DNA of 32,000 bases from Promethearchaeota archaeon (GCA_016933055.1 JAFGBS010000021.1:30001-62000), one strand, 5' to 3'. Numbered from the stretch's first letter, positions 15,733 through 23,559 are shown. The notes: generated from the letters alone by a model not told the origin. A program made the numbers and translations.

Positions 15733-16983
15733 TTATTTTTTGTCAATTAAGTTTATGAATTCTAGTGAGATTCTTCTCACTTTATCCAAAGCTTCTGACT
15801 CTACTTTGTCCGCTGTATCACCAATTGTGTGATACCAGCGTTTAACCTCGGGTTTTTCGATATCCATCGCTTCTAAACTAGCTCCTTTAGAAAATCCACC
15901 TTGCACAATTGCAGACCCATCTGTAGCTCCAAAGGGTAGAACTCGACTTTCTAAAGGGATTCCGATGTTTTCCGCTGCCTGAATAACTTTTTCTACAATT
16001 TCGGGATCATATTGTACTCCCAATGTGACTTCTTTATTGATCACATGGAGATCATCAGATTTTGCGACACCATCAAAATTCAAGAAATAAAACGGTTTTT
16101 TCTTAAGTTCGTCCTTATGGCCTTTTACCCAACGTTTTGCACCCCGAAGACCTGCTTCTTCGGAACCGAATGCACAAAAAAGTATTTTGGTATTTTTAGG
16201 TACAAGATCTTTATTAAGAGTGAGAGATTCTGCAATTCCTTGCATTATGGCAATTCCACTTAAATTATCGTTAGCCCCCATAACCGTCCATTTTGTTTTG
16301 AAGAAAAATAGCAAAGAGGTCATAGGAACGGTGATAATAGCCACACCTATTCCAAAGTAGGAAAAAATTGTTCCAGGAACATTAAAAACCCAACTAGATA
16401 TGAAAAAAGCAAGTGAAAGCAATATGTATATAACCAGTAATATAGGCAATCCGACTAGAAAATAATTGAACGTTCTCGGCATATATAGATTAAAATTAAA
16501 CTGATAGGCAGAATCTAGATGCGCAGAAAACATCAAAGTCTGCTTCCAGTCATCCCTTGGATTAATCTCACCTATTACATTCACACTGGTCTCTTTAGGA
16601 TAAAAAAAATCCACGAACTCCGCATATCGTAGAAATTGCATGTAGAAAATGAACATTGCTAAAATCGCTGTGATTGCTGAAATTATGGGATAAATCCAGA
16701 AAAAAGGCAATCCAATAAGGAATAATAATGGAGAAAATATCGTAAAACTTAGAAATGCGCGTGGAGCAAGTTTAAACTCTTCTTTAGTTACATCATCACA
16801 ATATTTAGTAAATTCATCTTTCACAATTTCTGCAGCTTTATGTTCAGCAGCACTTCCTGCCTCTCGTGGACCCACTTCTTCACAAATCTTCACGAGAAAT
16901 TTATGCATGGTATTTTGACGAAATCCTTCTGGAATCTTGTTATCCTTCCATACTCTTCGAGACAGTTCCTTATTTTTCACCAT
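15733..16983 (-). CDS. M28 family metallopeptidase with inserted TM hairpins
   Basis: Zn ligands SAHLDS, GANDNLSG, GSEEAG, LNFDG and YHTIGD; two hydrophobic insertions. Confidence 0.9.
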   Translation of the reverse strand: MVKNKELSRRVWKDNKIPEGFRQNTMHKFLVKICEEVGPREAGSAAEHKAAEIVKDEFTKYCDDVTKEEFKLAPRAFLSFTIFSPLLFLIGLPFFWIYPIISAITAILAMFIFYMQFLRYAEFVDFFYPKETSVNVIGEINPRDDWKQTLMFSAHLDSAYQFNFNLYMPRTFNYFLVGLPILLVIYILLSLAFFISSWVFNVPGTIFSYFGIGVAIITVPMTSLLFFFKTKWTVMGANDNLSGIAIMQGIAESLTLNKDLVPKNTKILFCAFGSEEAGLRGAKRWVKGHKDELKKKPFYFLNFDGVAKSDDLHVINKEVTLGVQYDPEIVEKVIQAAENIGIPLESRVLPFGATDGSAIVQGGFSKGASLEAMDIEKPEVKRWYHTIGDTADKVESEALDKVRRISLEFINLIDKK

Positions 16984-17203: not shown

Positions 17204-19009
17204 TCAAAAAAACTTCAATATAGATCCTTGTGATTGAGCTGGAGGAGGAATGTTCAGAATCGATGATAGAGTAGGAGCAATATGTATCAATTCCGTTAAC
17301 CCCTCAAGTTTCAATCCGTGTTCAACACTGGGACCTTTGAATATTATCGGAACACTATTGGAAAATGGTCCAAATCGCTTAGTTGGTAAATAATACGCAT
17401 GTGCACCAAAAATATGATCCGAATTATAACAAAGAGGTTTATCAATGAGATTGGTTCTAGCAGCATTCATAACTGCCAGATCATCATCGAATATATTATA
17501 AGGAGGATTGAGGAAATATACCACATCACCAATTCGTTTCCCATTCTGATGCAATTCTGGATGATCTTCTTTGCGCATCACCAAGTCAATAATCGGATTG
17601 TTATTTTCCGGGTCCTTTATGTCCTGTAACACGTCTATCACATGGTCCCTTATAGATTCATAATCTTTTTGATCTACTATTCCTTGGGGATCTCTACCCT
17701 TAAGATTAATCCAGATATAAGTGGGTTCACAATAAGGAAATACCTGAGATTTTGTCCAATCAATTTGATAATAATTCCCATTTTTCCTATAAGCCATTAA
17801 TCCAGCCTCTACTAGCGGTTTAACGATGTTCGCAATCCTCCAGCACGGAATAGCCCCATGATCCGAAATATACACAACTGTAGTATTTTCATCCACCACA
17901 CTATCAATCAAAATACCTACCATATCATCAACAATTGAATAGGCTGTTTGAACGTGATTAATCGCCATTTCAGCGGTTTTCTCATCATATTGGGGGTATT
18001 CAGGATGCAAGTGACCAAGCGTATTGTGATTTATGGTATCTAGGTGATGAACATGAAAATAACATAATTCCCATTTTAATTGTTTTCTTGCAAAATAAAT
18101 GGCATTGGCTATAGCTTGGGTTTCTTTACGAGCGAATTCTAGGACTTCGGTCATTTTCCCCTCAAATGTATATCCTACATTAGATTTCGTAGGATTTTCT
18201 TCGGGAAATTTTATATTTTTCAAAAGTTTTTCCGCAAAATCAGTTGAACTAGTCCATCCATGGGTATTGTATAGCGGAGAAATGATTAACTCAACTTTAG
18301 AACCATCTTGTGCTATTTCGCGTAAATAAAACCGGAATATTACAGGTAAATCCCGCCCTCGATATTGACTAAAACTATTGAACCACTCACTCCACTGTCC
18401 TTGTTGCATAGTGAATTTATGGTTACTATATCCATAATGCAGAGATTTTTTTTGTTTTATTTCAAATTTAATGGCTGTATTATTAGAAATATGGAGGGTG
18501 AAAGTGTTATTTCTGATGATAAGTTTTTTTTTTTTCGAGTTTGTAGAAAAAATTAGTGTCTTTTGTGATCGTATAATTGGAGGAAGAATAGTGGGAATCG
18601 GCCAGGAAAAAGCACTCATAATTCCAAATTTAAGATTTGCTAACCATCCAGCAGGATAATTAATGATAAATGAAGGAATTTGATGTCGATCGGCAGTTTC
18701 CCAGATATATTCTGCTGTAGTGAATTTCTTCAATTGGGAACGAGATCTTTGTGTGGCACCATAATCCAGCTCTTCCCCAGGAATATGGGTATAAAAACTG
18801 GTTGCCCCATGAACGGAAGTTGTAGCCCCTGTGGCGATTGTAGTCCAGTTCGTTGGTGTATCGCAAGGTACGCAAGAAAGCCCCTCTGCATAAACACCAG
18901 ATTCTATTAGATTTTTTATATTAGGTAAAAGTCCCTCATCGACAAATTTATCCAACAGATAGGGAATAGACTGATCGACACCGATTAATAGTACCTTGTT
19001 TCTATTCAT
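17204..19009 (-). CDS. Alkaline phosphatase superfamily (type I phosphodiesterase/nucleotide pyrophosphatase) protein
   Basis: LLIGVDQ, PCDTPTNWTTIATG (Thr nucleophile region), HHLDTINH, ISDHG, FGAH. The ORF-track start (19054) overlaps the SDR; ATG 19009 or 19018 is more likely. Confidence 0.88.
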   Translation of the reverse strand: MNRNKVLLIGVDQSIPYLLDKFVDEGLLPNIKNLIESGVYAEGLSCVPCDTPTNWTTIATGATTSVHGATSFYTHIPGEELDYGATQRSRSQLKKFTTAEYIWETADRHQIPSFIINYPAGWLANLKFGIMSAFSWPIPTILPPIIRSQKTLIFSTNSKKKKLIIRNNTFTLHISNNTAIKFEIKQKKSLHYGYSNHKFTMQQGQWSEWFNSFSQYRGRDLPVIFRFYLREIAQDGSKVELIISPLYNTHGWTSSTDFAEKLLKNIKFPEENPTKSNVGYTFEGKMTEVLEFARKETQAIANAIYFARKQLKWELCYFHVHHLDTINHNTLGHLHPEYPQYDEKTAEMAINHVQTAYSIVDDMVGILIDSVVDENTTVVYISDHGAIPCWRIANIVKPLVEAGLMAYRKNGNYYQIDWTKSQVFPYCEPTYIWINLKGRDPQGIVDQKDYESIRDHVIDVLQDIKDPENNNPIIDLVMRKEDHPELHQNGKRIGDVVYFLNPPYNIFDDDLAVMNAARTNLIDKPLCYNSDHIFGAHAYYLPTKRFGPFSNSVPIIFKGPSVEHGLKLEGLTELIHIAPTLSSILNIPPPAQSQGSILKFF

Positions 19010-19022
19010 CTGAACCATCTCA

Positions 19023-19814
19023 TTATAGGGAAGATTTAATAAAACCCCCATCAACAGGTATAACTTGTCCCGTAATATACGTATTTCTTCCCGATACTAA
19101 AAATGTGACGAAGGAACCGATTTCTTCTGGTTCTCCAAACCTACCAATTGGTATTTGGGAAGTTCGCGATTGAGTAATCTGTTCCTTCGTTTTTCCTTCT
19201 ACCTTTGCCCATCCTTGAATAACCTGTTGAAGACGTTCAGTGTTTATGGTACCTGGCATAACCACGTTTATTAAAATATTATCTCGACCCACTTCGTTAG
19301 CAAGAGTTTTTAGATATCCTACTACCGCAAGTCGTGTGGAATTTGATAGGACTAAATTTGGTAATGGTTGTTTTGCAGATACCGAGGTGATCGCTACAAC
19401 GCGACCGTAGGTTTTTTGCTGCATTAGTGGAATGAATGCTTTAGTTAACCGTACTACAGAGAGAAAATTTGTATTTAGGGCATTTTGCCATTGTTCTTCC
19501 GTCATTTCCAAAGATGATCCGGTTGGGGGACCCCCTGCATTTATAACTAAACCATCCAGTTTTTCGTATTTGCTAATAACGGTATTTTTCAGTTTTTCAA
19601 TGTCCTTCAGATTAGAGACATCCGAAACAATCCAATCAGGCTTTAATCCAGTGTCTAAAACAATTCTTTCAGCTGCATTTTTCAGATTTTTTTCCGATCG
19701 AGAGGAGAGAATTACGTGTGCTCCTTCCTCAGCGAGAATTTTTGCGCACGCATATCCAAGTCCTTTACTTGATCCAGTGATAAGAATTATTTTATCTTGG
19801 AATATGAGATCCAT
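19023..19814 (-). CDS. SDR family oxidoreductase, atypical (FabG-like subgroup lacking YxxxK)
   Basis: TGSSKGLG, NAGGPP, LSNSTR in place of YxxxK, MPGTINT, GRFGEPEEIG, ITGQVIPVDGG. Confidence 0.93.
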   Translation of the reverse strand: MDLIFQDKIILITGSSKGLGYACAKILAEEGAHVILSSRSEKNLKNAAERIVLDTGLKPDWIVSDVSNLKDIEKLKNTVISKYEKLDGLVINAGGPPTGSSLEMTEEQWQNALNTNFLSVVRLTKAFIPLMQQKTYGRVVAITSVSAKQPLPNLVLSNSTRLAVVGYLKTLANEVGRDNILINVVMPGTINTERLQQVIQGWAKVEGKTKEQITQSRTSQIPIGRFGEPEEIGSFVTFLVSGRNTYITGQVIPVDGGFIKSSL

Positions 19815-19854
19815 ACTTGGAGATATGGACCGATAATTTTAAATATACGACTTG

Positions 19855-19890
19855 TGTCAAGTGTACTTGACATATCAAGTTTACTTGACA
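19855..19890. promoter_or_regulatory. Two abutting 18-bp palindromic operators
   Basis: 19855-19872 TGTCAAGT-GT-ACTTGACA (perfect arms); 19873-19890 TATCAAGT-TT-ACTTGACA (one mismatch). Located between the divergent SDR and bPH_2-HTH genes. Confidence 0.85.
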
Positions 19891-19920: not shown

Positions 19921-20757
19921 ATGTCAGAAAAAAACCAAGAAAATGAATATATAGGTGACATACAGCGGGATTATGTCCGAAAAGAAGTTCTGAAATCTCT
20001 AATAATCTCGATGCTCATCTGTGGAGGATTGTTTGGGTTTGTTTTTACTCCTTTGTATTTTGAAGGGGCTCCTTCTTGGGCATTTAATACCCTTTATCTT
20101 AGCCTGGCAGCAATATTTTTTCTGTTAAACCTCATTGTGTATGTCTATGAGATCGCTTTTTGGAAATCATTTACCTATCGAATTAGTACTCAGTATATTC
20201 GCATCAATAGCGGTGTCTTTACGAAGTCGAAAACAACCATCCCTTTTAGTCGAATTCAAAATATAAATATTGCACAAGGTGTGTTTGACCGAATCTTTGG
20301 ACTACACACCGTGAAAATCGAGACAGCGGGAAAAAGTGCAGGTCAGCAGCAAGGCGGACCCATTAAACCTGAGGGATATATACCGGGTGTTAGAGATCCT
20401 ACTCGAATAACAGAAATAATAGATCAGTTGGTGGATAAATACACACAAAAAAAAATGGATGCGGGGATAGGGGATTACATTTTCGAAGACACTAACCTTG
20501 CTTTTGATGAATTTATTGCATATATCCTATCAAAAATGCTGGAGGGGCATCAATTGAAAACTCGTGTAAAAGAATTAAGAGAAAAACAAGTATTATCACA
20601 AGCACAACTCGCAGAAGAAATTGGAGTAAGTCGTCAAACTATTAATTATCTAGAACGAGGAAAATATGTCCCTTCATTGACTCTAGCGATGAAGATAGCG
20701 AAATTCTTCAAAATACCGGTTGAGAAAATTTTTGAATTGGAAGAACAAGACGAATAA
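19921..20757 (+). CDS. Membrane 2TM + bacterial PH (bPH_2/YdbS-like) domain fused to C-terminal XRE/Cro HTH regulator
   Basis: Two TM helices, then TYRISTQYIRINSGVFTKSKTTIPFSRIQNINIAQGVFDRIFGLHTVKIETAG (bPH_2 signature). C-terminus VKELREKQVLSQAQLAEEIGVSRQTINYLERGKYVPSLTLAMKIAKFF is an HTH_3. Confidence 0.9.
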   Translation: MSEKNQENEYIGDIQRDYVRKEVLKSLIISMLICGGLFGFVFTPLYFEGAPSWAFNTLYLSLAAIFFLLNLIVYVYEIAFWKSFTYRISTQYIRINSGVFTKSKTTIPFSRIQNINIAQGVFDRIFGLHTVKIETAGKSAGQQQGGPIKPEGYIPGVRDPTRITEIIDQLVDKYTQKKMDAGIGDYIFEDTNLAFDEFIAYILSKMLEGHQLKTRVKELREKQVLSQAQLAEEIGVSRQTINYLERGKYVPSLTLAMKIAKFFKIPVEKIFELEEQDE

Positions 20758-20766
20758 TCATAATTT

Positions 20767-21480
20767 TTACTTTCTTTTTTCATCTAACACGTATTCTAGA
20801 ATTTCTCGAATAGGTATCAACTCATGCACCACAAGATATTCTTTTGGTTTCTCCTCACCTGAAGTTCTCATTCGTGTTTGTTCCATCTCATAGATGTAAT
20901 CCCGTTCAAAAATGAGAAATCTATTTCGATAATCTATATATTCTTCTTTAGTTAAAAAAATGATACGGGGAATACAGGTATTATAACGATATTTTTCCTC
21001 GACAAATTCTTCTGTTATATCTTTTTGGGTGATATTATCATAGAAATCGCTGATATACATCAAGATTTGCTGGTTTGTTTCTTGAATATAGGTAAATAAT
21101 CGCAAATTAATTAGGAATTCTTCATGTAAATGTTCTATAAACTCATGTGGACTAACTTGCTTAAGATCTTCATAGGTTCTTCCTCTATATCCTCGTTTTT
21201 TCCTAGCAGAATAAATTTTTTGTTTGATAGAGCCACGATAATGTTGCTGTCGTACATCGATGAGTCCAATTTTGATAAGTTCTTTTATGTGTTTAGAAAT
21301 AGTCGATTTTGCTTTTCCCATCTTAGCAGATAATTCAGTTAGAGTAAGTTCTGGAAAAATCAATAACATCATTAATATTCTTACTTTTAAACCAGAGTCT
21401 AGAATTTTTGCATGCTTTTCTGAATCTAATCTAATTTGGTTTTCTAATGAGTTTTTAGAATTATTACTACCTATATCCAA
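20767..21480 (-). CDS. ArsR-like winged-HTH transcriptional regulator with C-terminal extension
   Basis: KVRILMMLLIFPELTLTELSAKMGKAKSTISKHIKELIKIGLI wHTH, RG..KQKIYS wing; TTG start. Confidence 0.85.
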   Translation of the reverse strand: MDIGSNNSKNSLENQIRLDSEKHAKILDSGLKVRILMMLLIFPELTLTELSAKMGKAKSTISKHIKELIKIGLIDVRQQHYRGSIKQKIYSARKKRGYRGRTYEDLKQVSPHEFIEHLHEEFLINLRLFTYIQETNQQILMYISDFYDNITQKDITEEFVEEKYRYNTCIPRIIFLTKEEYIDYRNRFLIFERDYIYEMEQTRMRTSGEEKPKEYLVVHELIPIREILEYVLDEKRK

Positions 21481-21669: not shown

Positions 21670-23559
21670 ATGATTGATATGAATAAAACTAAAAAAGCTG
21701 GAATTGCGTTTGGAGTTTTGTTTCTTATTACAGTTGCTGGAATAGTATTAGCTTCTGGTTTTCAAAGCTCTTGGGGAAGTGTAGACGTCTCCATAGTGAA
21801 GATAAATACTCCAAATGGATATACTCTTACAGGGAAATTATATGTCCCTGAGGGAGTGGATAGTTCCAACCCTGCTCCAGGTGTTCTTGCTATTCATGGA
21901 TATAACAATGATAAGGATGTGCAAAGACCTCATTCGATTGAATTATCTAAGAGGGGCATAGTTGTGTTAGCCATTGATGTTCTAAATCATGGTGACTCTG
22001 ATTATGCAAATACTTCAACGGGTTCTGGAAATTCTGCAATACCCTATGAGGCAATGGATTATCTAAAATCCTTGGATTTTGTGGATTCCTCAAAAATAGC
22101 TTGCACTGGTCATAGCATGGGTGCATACTATACACTTTACATTGCACTAGCAAACCCTGATTTGGAAGCAATAGCTCCGATTGCCTTTGCTCCGATAACT
22201 TCATTTTATCCAACATTGAGGGCATTCAATCCGGACCTTGATATTCTACAAGTATCAAGTTGGGGTGAAGAATTCGGAAGAGCATACAATGAGACCATTG
22301 AGGCATTTATGGAAAGATGTTTGAATTCGATTGCTGCCTTTACTGGGGAAACTGCTCAATGGGATTACACATACGGGAATTTTACTGATGGTGCAACAAG
22401 ATTTGAGTTATTGAAGAAAACTCATCCGGGACAGACCCATAGTCGAAAGTCAACAGCTGCGATAACTGCGTTCTTCTTGCAATCTCTGATGGATTATACA
22501 GAAGAAGATGCATTCGCTTCTGCAAACAAGAATAATATGGTATACTGGCTTGCTGATCTTTTCGGAGTTGTAGCCATGGCAGGATTGTTATTCTCTATTA
22601 TCCCACTCGCAATACTTTTAATGCAAACGCATCTTTTTGGTGAAGTATCACAACCTATGCCTAAATACAAAGAAACCTACGCCCCAAAATTATGGGTTTG
22701 GTGGGTGTTTGGGATCGTTAATGCCACAATTGGTACTCTGACCTATATATTCAATACAGAATACTCAAATGATGGACCCAGAAATGGTGATTGGGTGTTT
22801 GACGGCACAATGATTAAAAATTTCGCTCCTAATATCTGGCGAAGTGGAATAGCTAATGATTTCCTCTCTTTCTTTGTAGTAAATGCAGGAGTGATGATTT
22901 TAATTGTCCTATTTTGGTATTTTGTAATATACCGTAAGAAACGCGTAGGATTTTACGATTTAGGTGCAAACTATAGTATGCCAACGGACGAGTTTGAAGG
23001 TGAGAAACCTCATGGATGGCGAATTTTTGGAAAAACGATATTCTTAGCATTCATATTGTTCAGTTATATGTATGTAATTACTGCTGTTGCGCAACACTTA
23101 GGTAATGTAGAAATTCGAGGTCCATGGTCTGCCTTTAAGGTGATGACCCCCGAACGGGCTGTAACATTTTGGTACTATTTCCCCGGTGTTTTGTTATTCT
23201 GGATCTTCAACGCAGGAATTTGGATGTTCGGAATGATGCGACAAAAGGAATTAAAAACCGAAGCAGGAACTATTATCGTTTGGTGGCTCAAAATTTGCGT
23301 CGTTATGTTAACCGGTTTAGTGTTATTGAACGTGATCTCCTACGTACCGATGTATTTAGGCTTGACCGGTCCGTACTTGAACAAGTTATCCTTCGCACCC
23401 ATGAACTTATTGCAATTGTGGTCATTTATTCCATACGCAGCAGGTTTTTACCTAGTAGCAATATTTTTCTTCCGAAAAACTGGGAAAATCTGGCTAGGAA
23501 CATTGATGTGCTCTGCAATAACAACCTGGATGATGGTAACCGGTTATATAATGTGGTAA
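21670..23559 (+). CDS. Alpha/beta hydrolase with N-terminal TM and polytopic C-terminal membrane domain
   Basis: GVLAIHGY oxyanion loop, GHSMG nucleophile elbow, candidate His in THPGQTHS; roughly 8-9 TM segments after residue ~290. Confidence 0.88.
   Translation: MIDMNKTKKAGIAFGVLFLITVAGIVLASGFQSSWGSVDVSIVKINTPNGYTLTGKLYVPEGVDSSNPAPGVLAIHGYNNDKDVQRPHSIELSKRGIVVLAIDVLNHGDSDYANTSTGSGNSAIPYEAMDYLKSLDFVDSSKIACTGHSMGAYYTLYIALANPDLEAIAPIAFAPITSFYPTLRAFNPDLDILQVSSWGEEFGRAYNETIEAFMERCLNSIAAFTGETAQWDYTYGNFTDGATRFELLKKTHPGQTHSRKSTAAITAFFLQSLMDYTEEDAFASANKNNMVYWLADLFGVVAMAGLLFSIIPLAILLMQTHLFGEVSQPMPKYKETYAPKLWVWWVFGIVNATIGTLTYIFNTEYSNDGPRNGDWVFDGTMIKNFAPNIWRSGIANDFLSFFVVNAGVMILIVLFWYFVIYRKKRVGFYDLGANYSMPTDEFEGEKPHGWRIFGKTIFLAFILFSYMYVITAVAQHLGNVEIRGPWSAFKVMTPERAVTFWYYFPGVLLFWIFNAGIWMFGMMRQKELKTEAGTIIVWWLKICVVMLTGLVLLNVISYVPMYLGLTGPYLNKLSFAPMNLLQLWSFIPYAAGFYLVAIFFFRKTGKIWLGTLMCSAITTWMMVTGYIMW

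Follow-up and report, generated by a model that had tools for sequence, protein, structure and literature searches.

The stretch of DNA analysed here, which we call the window (32,000 nt of a Promethearchaeota archaeon, JAFGBS010000021.1:30001-62000), contains a gene for a 278-aa protein in which a transmembrane (TM) helical hairpin and a bacterial-type PH domain (bPH_2) are fused to an XRE helix-turn-helix (HTH). A 106-bp control region separates it from a divergent short-chain dehydrogenase (SDR) gene (ATG 19814, - strand). The features of the locus are as follows.

19023..19814, - strand: divergent SDR gene (adh_short_C2, E 2e-54)
19837..19847, no strand: TATA-like box, T4A3TATA, near-palindromic (read from the sequence)
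19855..19872, no strand: candidate operator O1, a perfect 18-bp palindrome, TGTCAAGT-GT-ACTTGACA (from the sequence)
19873..19890, no strand: candidate operator O2, TATCAAGT-TT-ACTTGACA, abutting O1 in an 18-nt register (from the sequence)
19921..20757, + strand: fusion gene, 278 aa, stop codon included
19948..19959, + strand: N-terminal beta-strand, residues 10-13, preceding TM1 (model, block pLDDT 96)
19969..20169, + strand: TM helical hairpin, residues 17-83, with helices 17-47 and 52-83 and an outside loop 48-51 (model, pLDDT 97)
20170..20451, + strand: bPH_2 domain with its C-terminal helix, residues 84-177, predicted to be cytoplasmic (PF03703; Foldseek)
20452..20490, + strand: variable, probably flexible connector, residues 178-190, 13 residues (pLDDT <50 for 179-193; conservation)
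20491..20544, + strand: family-signature helix, residues 191-208, 18 residues, LAFDxFIxYxxxKMxE (conservation; model)
20545..20739, + strand: CylR2-type XRE HTH, residues 209-273 (PF01381; PDB sequence search; Foldseek)

An earlier reading of this DNA from the sequence alone (the sequence-only reading) had described one ORF joining two TM helices, a bPH_2 domain and a complete HTH, and Pfam, the structural model, the contigs and the homologues all agree with that description. The gene is a single open frame with no in-frame start further upstream. In Pfam, bPH_2 (PF03703) matches residues 81-140 with 69.9 bits against a cut-off of 22 (E 2e-19), and HTH_3 (PF01381) matches residues 216-269 with 61.5 bits against a cut-off of 23 (E 8e-17). 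We looked for a stop or frameshift between the domains and found none: the probable source run yields a contig that matches the whole fusion-gene stretch with 0 differences and 0 indels, an independent second run is identical over 20519-20800, and the single frame is kept in more than 100 full-length homologues from independent assemblies. The agreement of the contig and of these homologues excludes a frameshift or assembly artefact.

An AlphaFold2 monomer model, made with an alignment of 121 family members, has a mean pLDDT of 83.8. From the N-terminus it has the strand at residues 10-13, helices 17-47 and 52-83 (pLDDT ~97), the beta-rich PH domain closed by a C-terminal helix (85-177), residues 179-193 at low confidence, a further helix at 191-207 and a five-helix HTH (216-270). 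A full-length homodimer prediction with the family alignment scored 0.01, a value that weighs neither for nor against a dimer. The hairpin sequence is poorly conserved in the family (top-residue frequency 0.34-0.36), and the PH core is conserved (0.71). There are 4 lysine and arginine residues ahead of TM1, none in the loop and 3 following TM2, a distribution that fits a predicted N-in/C-in topology with both termini, the PH domain and the HTH in the cytoplasm; a cytoplasmic placement has likewise been predicted for membrane PHb families (Xu et al.). In HMM score, and in having a membrane hairpin before a PH domain predicted to be cytoplasmic, the protein is a bPH_2 protein, and its PH part matches the PH-fold protein 3dcx in Foldseek (probability 1.00, E 0.015). 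At the N-terminal strand, G12 and I14 are conserved in the family columns. We infer, rather than read from contacts in the model, that this strand pairs with the PH sheet; a contiguous beta1 is missing from membrane PHb families (Xu et al.). The PH loop 138-150 is of low confidence in the model. In two variants, P0150 and P0241, the equivalent of this loop is replaced by ~58 residues with two hydrophobic helices, making a second membrane hairpin inserted within the PH domain, and this extra helix pair suggests that the loop faces the membrane.

The domain architecture supports the earlier proposal of a membrane-anchored regulator of the one-component type. The protein also has the two elements that define a transmembrane transcription regulator, a predicted DNA-binding domain and at least one predicted TM region in one protein (PMC10269533). 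The ~60-aa linker of the sequence-only reading is present, although it is not a passive spacer: it is made up of the C-terminal helix of the PH domain (161-177), the variable residues 178-190 and a conserved helix, 191-208. The latter is the best conserved segment of the family, with a top-residue frequency of 0.75 versus 0.68 for the HTH, and D196 and F198 within it are invariant in the family alignment. A conserved helix between the PH domain and the HTH suggests that the two are coupled, rather than that one is a mere appendage of the other, and helix 191-208, placed directly before the HTH, is a candidate coupling or dimerisation element. It was modelled at a pLDDT of only ~57; low confidence in a monomer model would be consistent with a need for a partner surface.

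The connector could also serve as a site of regulated release, in that proteolysis within 178-190 would free an active repressor of ~90 aa or, conversely, would destroy a tethered one. Residues 179-193 are variable and of low confidence, the free fragment would resemble stand-alone CylR2-type proteins, and natural split forms (see below) indicate that the halves are workable as separate polypeptides. Against this, one would not expect a mere spacer to be conserved more strongly than the HTH, as helix 191-208 is; the genes next to the family include no conserved protease gene; and tethered DNA-binding membrane regulators are well documented in bacteria and archaea. We consider release improbable, and favor a protein that acts from the membrane.

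The C-terminal domain is an XRE/HTH_3 domain by HMM score and by its five-helix Cro/C1-type fold, for which Foldseek returned many XRE structures. A PDB sequence search matched it to DR_2454 of Deinococcus (9k3w, E 1e-13) and to CylR2 (1utx and 2xiu, E 2.8e-12), and in Foldseek its identity to these two proteins was 45-55%, with TM-scores by target of 0.88-0.94. The recognition helix, G-V-S-R-Q-T-I at residues 235-241, is the same in CylR2 and DR_2454. In sequence, fold and S-R-Q-T-I helix the domain is thus of the CylR2 type; because it is fused, forming the C-terminal quarter of a 278-aa membrane protein rather than a stand-alone protein of ~65 aa, it lies outside the stand-alone CylR2 proteins. 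No other CylR2-type HTH was found in the window's genome even at E<=1 (3.76-Mb assembly); since the assembly is 91% complete, another HTH or further binding sites could sit in the missing part.

The control region consists of a TATA-like box followed by the two palindromes. On the + strand the box precedes the middle of O1 by ~26 nt, and read on the - strand it precedes the SDR ATG by ~26 nt too. With the box centred at 19842, the usual archaeal spacing would place the start of the fusion-gene transcript near 19868, inside O1, so that a bound dimer would block initiation. On the other strand, its distance from the start codon suggests a leaderless SDR transcript with the operators upstream of the TATA box. 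Three orthologous loci, with protein identities of 74-80%, retain the box and both palindromes, and TTTAAATAT of the box is invariant there. In the 3.76-Mb genome, O1 is the sole exact match to TGTnAAnTnnAnTTnACA, and the 14-bp core TCAAGTnnACTTGA has exactly two copies, one in O1 and the other in O2. Across the family, TGTnAAnTnnAnTTnACA with at most one mismatch is present at -330..+30 of the fusion gene in 51 of the 85 loci, and sites of this type have a density of 2.07/kb there versus 0.020/kb over the other 880 kb of these loci (~100-fold); this family-wide enrichment is not specific to the tethered HTH, since in most relatives a soluble second XRE could bind the palindrome. The candidate operators at 19855-19890 to which the sequence-only reading had drawn attention therefore appear both real and specific, with a genome-unique core that is conserved and is enriched upstream of the family, and we infer that they are inverted-repeat sites for the HTH. 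The strongest argument that the window's protein would bind O1 and O2 itself is that it contains the only canonical CylR2-type HTH in its 91% complete genome.

A similar pairing of HTH and palindrome is seen in a bacterium. The promoter of an HTH-DUF2178 operon of Clostridium estertheticum, whose HTH is 60% identical, has the near-identical palindromes TGTCAAGTTAGCTTGACA and TGTAAAGGATACTTGACA, each one mismatch away from the degenerate pattern, so the half-site that accompanies this HTH type is the same in an archaeal and a bacterial setting. Some lineages of the family have quite different upstream palindromes, either TGCAACCATTGGTTGCA twice or ACTAGTAAATTTACTAGT (5689-5760 in L012, from Harpocratesius repetitus; ~-60..-45 in L015, L017 and L031), which hints, as far as sequence comparison goes, that operator and recognition helix co-evolved. 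A search of the window's genome for a wider regulon gave core sites with one mismatch at the control level (13 versus 9 per strand) and 30 matches to the degenerate 18-mer with at most one mismatch versus 25 in the control, from which no further target can be named.

The best explanation of the observed architecture, conservation, operator specificity and enrichment, to which we give a probability of roughly 0.6, is a membrane-bound repressor that would regulate its own gene through O1 and O2 and would probably affect the SDR gene, its activity being set by the hairpin and PH domain through helix 191-208. In this model, the two-helix hairpin would anchor the PH domain directly beneath the membrane with both ends in the cytoplasm, and the flexible stretch together with conserved helix 191-208 would tie the PH domain to the CylR2-type HTH. 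HTH dimers would bind the two abutting 18-bp palindromes, which lie directly downstream of the TATA-like box and over the expected transcription start; because O1 and O2 cover that start, the protein would repress its own gene. Via the common control region it would probably also act on the divergent SDR gene. DNA binding would change with the state of the hairpin and PH domain, whether set by a ligand, by lipid or by oligomerisation, and helix 191-208 would pass that state on. Envelope stress, the signal favored by the sequence-only reading, might be proposed by analogy with YdbS/YdbT only. That reading also put forward control by PH oligomerisation or by proteolytic release, and neither gained support from the analysis.

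A regulon limited to its own promoter would be expected of a self-limiting membrane protein no less than of a signal transducer. In the former case the hairpin and PH domain would have a YdbS- or DdE-like job, such as peptide export, immunity or membrane maintenance, and the HTH would provide feedback only, with no relay of a signal. The genome's only operator pair is indeed at the gene's own promoter, and most relatives adjoin an ABC exporter. The bPH_2 proteins DdE and DdF are needed for export of a leaderless bacteriocin, and Xu et al. suggested that membrane PHb proteins may act as transporters or pores. Against this, the window's genome has neither a homologue of the 537-aa permease encoded beside some relatives (only generic ABC ATPases were found) nor a YdbT-like partner (one weak second bPH-like match, E 0.03, lies on a different contig, with no adjacent one). 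Coupled parts, rather than an appendage, are suggested by the conserved helix between PH domain and HTH, and a control region held in common with the SDR gene points to one or more additional targets. We regard a purely self-limiting role as unlikely, although less so than proteolytic release, and prefer the signal-controlled repressor. The SDR gene is a candidate second target, with co-regulation suggested by geometry only; its divergent orientation recurs in the window's clade (L002, L003 and L007). SDR genes are also found near the family in 14 of the 85 loci, among them L005 and L091, and one adjoins a CylR2-type HTH gene on a Staphylococcus epidermidis plasmid (L088, 234-1410); as SDRs are very common, this recurrence near CylR2-type HTH genes may be due to chance.

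Most relatives differ from the window's locus in having a partner gene. A second XRE gene lies 20-250 nt downstream of the fusion gene in 72 of the 85 loci and encodes either a 65-aa CylR2-like protein or one of ~135 aa with a C-terminal extension. An ABC ATPase gene is present in 39/85 loci, mostly ~520 nt downstream, and the gene for the 537-aa permease in 23/85; the second XRE, the ATPase and the permease are all absent from the window's clade, in which the fused recognition helix has stayed canonical. The presence of the second XRE goes with the state of the fused recognition helix. In 11 loci this helix is canonical (S-R or T-R), and in 9 of them no second XRE was called, although some of these solo calls (e.g. 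MK-D1) are probably misses of the ORF caller. In 73 loci the helix has diverged (mostly to P-I, P-L, P-V or K-K), and 69 of these have a second XRE; the helix of the second XRE is canonical in at least 55 of 72 cases. A tree from a quick search, midpoint-rooted and with long branches, has two major clades with 99% SH-aLRT each: all canonical fusion HTHs fall in one, and every one of the 68 entries in the other has a diverged helix and a partner XRE. Phylogeny partly confounds the association of a canonical helix with a missing second XRE. In five loci of the majority clade (L044, L059, L065, L072 and L073) a control region of ~220 bp (~-260..0) has a canonical palindrome at ~-215 and two related but different palindromes at ~-125, following a TTTAAATA box, and at ~-50; the different palindromes may serve the soluble and the tethered HTH separately.

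The divergence of the tethered helix raises the question of whether it binds DNA at all. The tethered HTH might be mainly a protein-interaction module, either a decoy or anti-repressor for the soluble XRE or a RodZ-like binder of the cytoskeleton, and the replacement of S-R by P-I/L/V or K-K in the majority clade, where the adjacent soluble XRE keeps S-R, is in line with this. In the window, by contrast, the genome has no second CylR2-type HTH, the helix is canonical and operators precede the gene. Such a role is very unlikely for the window's protein, and is more plausible for the paired majority clade; for the former we retain the DNA-binding repressor described above.

The architecture is neither rare nor peculiar to this window, and defines a conserved family across Loki-type Asgard archaea. 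A word-indexed search returned more than 430 matching proteins, nearly all with both domains, and those with named organisms come from Asgard archaea. When 1.84 billion cluster representatives were searched exhaustively, 23 clusters (50% identity) came out at E<1e-30; most are full-length proteins of the same architecture, with a few fragments and multi-repeat proteins, and the weaker matches are multi-repeat YdbT-like and multi-HTH proteins. Relatives are encoded on 184 stretches among 185,579 species genomes, the best 80 of which are all from Asgard or 'uncultured archaeon' MAGs. Both Promethearchaeum syntrophicum MK-D1 and Lokiarchaeum ossiferum, which are in culture, carry the family. A kinship-based search of 300 further genomes sampled from the same phylum found full-length matches in 49 of the 75 that belong to the window's order (5/6 and 44/69 in its two families); the ~224 sampled from the phylum's other families gave no full-length match and a single PH-only match, in the same class. 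As the full-length matches in this sample are confined to the window's order, the family is a conserved order-level invention. We had considered a phylum-wide spread, based on submitters' labels (Hod-, Hermod-, Odin- and Thorarchaeota), and rejected it when the kinship-based search found the window's order only. Those labels on family-bearing MAGs may not match current classification.

Orthologues are not generally split into two genes. Most relatives keep the fusion, and a natural split form occurs on 7 contigs from several samples, with 64 nt between the genes; in L091 (3001-3825; also in L092 and L093) a 183-aa 2TM-bPH_2 gene without an HTH is followed by a 69-aa HTH_3 gene. This split form reinforces the functional linkage of the hairpin-PH and HTH halves. 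As the sequence-only reading had supposed, we found no characterised protein with this architecture in the literature searched. There is no dedicated NCBIfam model for the fusion family, generic XRE models matching below threshold only, and a survey of transmembrane transcription regulators mentions no XRE, PH or Asgard examples.

The closest functional parallel is CylR1/CylR2 of Enterococcus faecalis, in which CylR2 represses the cytolysin promoter and CylR1, a small predicted membrane protein, is required for control by CylR2. The fused HTH is 45% identical to CylR2 over 60 residues (TM-score by target 0.90). The two systems also share a palindromic operator at the regulated promoter, a candidate one for the fusion, and the dependence of CylR2 on a membrane protein matches the membrane anchoring of the fused HTH. 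They differ in that the fusion is one polypeptide, in which a 2TM hairpin and bPH_2 domain take the place of the three predicted TM helices of CylR1, and in that its host is archaeal, with a TATA-type promoter and no lantibiotic genes nearby. Relatives of the fused HTH were found in 972 records (plasmids of Bacillota), and in the examples that we examined a membrane-protein gene (DUF3796, DUF2178 or DUF3169) lies right next to the small HTH gene or overlaps it. The HTHs of these pairs are 52-60% identical to that of the fusion, and the palindromes of Clostridium estertheticum noted above belong to one of them; unlike the fusion, they comprise two genes, are bacterial and have partners not annotated as bPH_2, and they are likewise uncharacterised. 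In view of such pairs, the Asgard protein joins covalently what is elsewhere a widespread two-gene arrangement, with another membrane part.

Comparison with other membrane regulators shows what is shared and what is not. Like ToxR, CadC and BcrR of bacteria and ArnR/ArnR1 of Sulfolobus, the fusion has a DNA-binding domain and TM segments in one protein and would be expected to act from the membrane. The HTH of BcrR is also of the XRE type, and BcrR controls an ABC transporter, which is probably true of most relatives of the fusion as well. However, the fusion reverses the BcrR order, with the membrane part N-terminal and the HTH C-terminal. The window has no ABC transporter, nor does its genome encode the family permease; on the grounds of the reversed order and the lack of a transporter in the window, the protein is not BcrR-like. 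Compared with transmembrane regulators generally, its putative sensor is a cytoplasmic PH domain, the outside loop of 4 residues leaves essentially no extracytoplasmic part, and homology is limited to the generic HTH. YdbS/YdbT of Bacillus subtilis and DdE/DdF of Enterococcus faecalis share with it the unit of 2TM hairpin and bPH_2 domain, with a clear Pfam match, but have no DNA-binding domain and consist of a one-repeat and a three-repeat protein; no such side-by-side pair of bPH_2 genes is present at the window's locus. The 278-aa fusion is real, conserved and uncharacterised, and it is a variant of the transmembrane one-component regulators, in effect a fused CylR1/CylR2-like module, providing a clean experimental entry point rather than a new principle.

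How CylR1 controls CylR2 has been an open question since 2002, and a natural covalent fusion of such a module speaks for direct physical contact between the two parts when they act. More tentatively, and with doubts that outweigh our confidence, we speculate that the fusion family as a whole works in the manner of CylR1/CylR2, with the membrane part holding the HTH through helix 191-208 and acting as the switch. The solo form in the window would then be a complete one-protein circuit, and in the majority form the tethered HTH, its recognition helix having diverged, would by now serve as a partner at the membrane that captures or releases the soluble canonical XRE; the result would be a membrane-to-DNA relay without phosphorylation, confined to Loki-type Asgard archaea and probably derived from Bacillota. 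Asgard archaea are the closest known prokaryotic relatives of eukaryotes, and to our knowledge their signal transduction is almost unexplored experimentally. The family offers a conserved, order-specific regulator that is present in both cultured representatives, and the window's version is the simplest case, with one protein, one promoter, two operators and no confusing second paralogue.

The neighbors of the fusion gene in the window's clade are the divergent SDR gene, a convergent winged-helix gene and membrane-anchored alpha/beta hydrolases. In the window the convergent gene (20767-21480, - strand) ends 10 nt past the fusion-gene stop and encodes a 237-aa protein with an ArsR/MarR/MsvR-like winged helix (~21-92) and a C-terminal part of ~140 aa without a family match; L002 and L003 have it in the same position, with a 4-nt overlap between it and the fusion gene. 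Further downstream (21670-23559, + strand) lies the gene for a 629-aa protein with an N-terminal alpha/beta-hydrolase domain (PETase/esterase-like, weak matches) and a long, hydrophobic C-terminal half that is probably multi-TM, and two or three genes of this type are found in tandem in L002 and L003. Upstream of the SDR gene are a gene for a 616-aa protein resembling type I phosphodiesterase/nucleotide pyrophosphatase (17204-19054, - strand) and an M28-type peptidase gene (15733-16983, - strand), the latter assigned by its ORF cluster with M28 genes of L002 and L003; the phosphodiesterase-like and M28-type genes are syntenic in L002.
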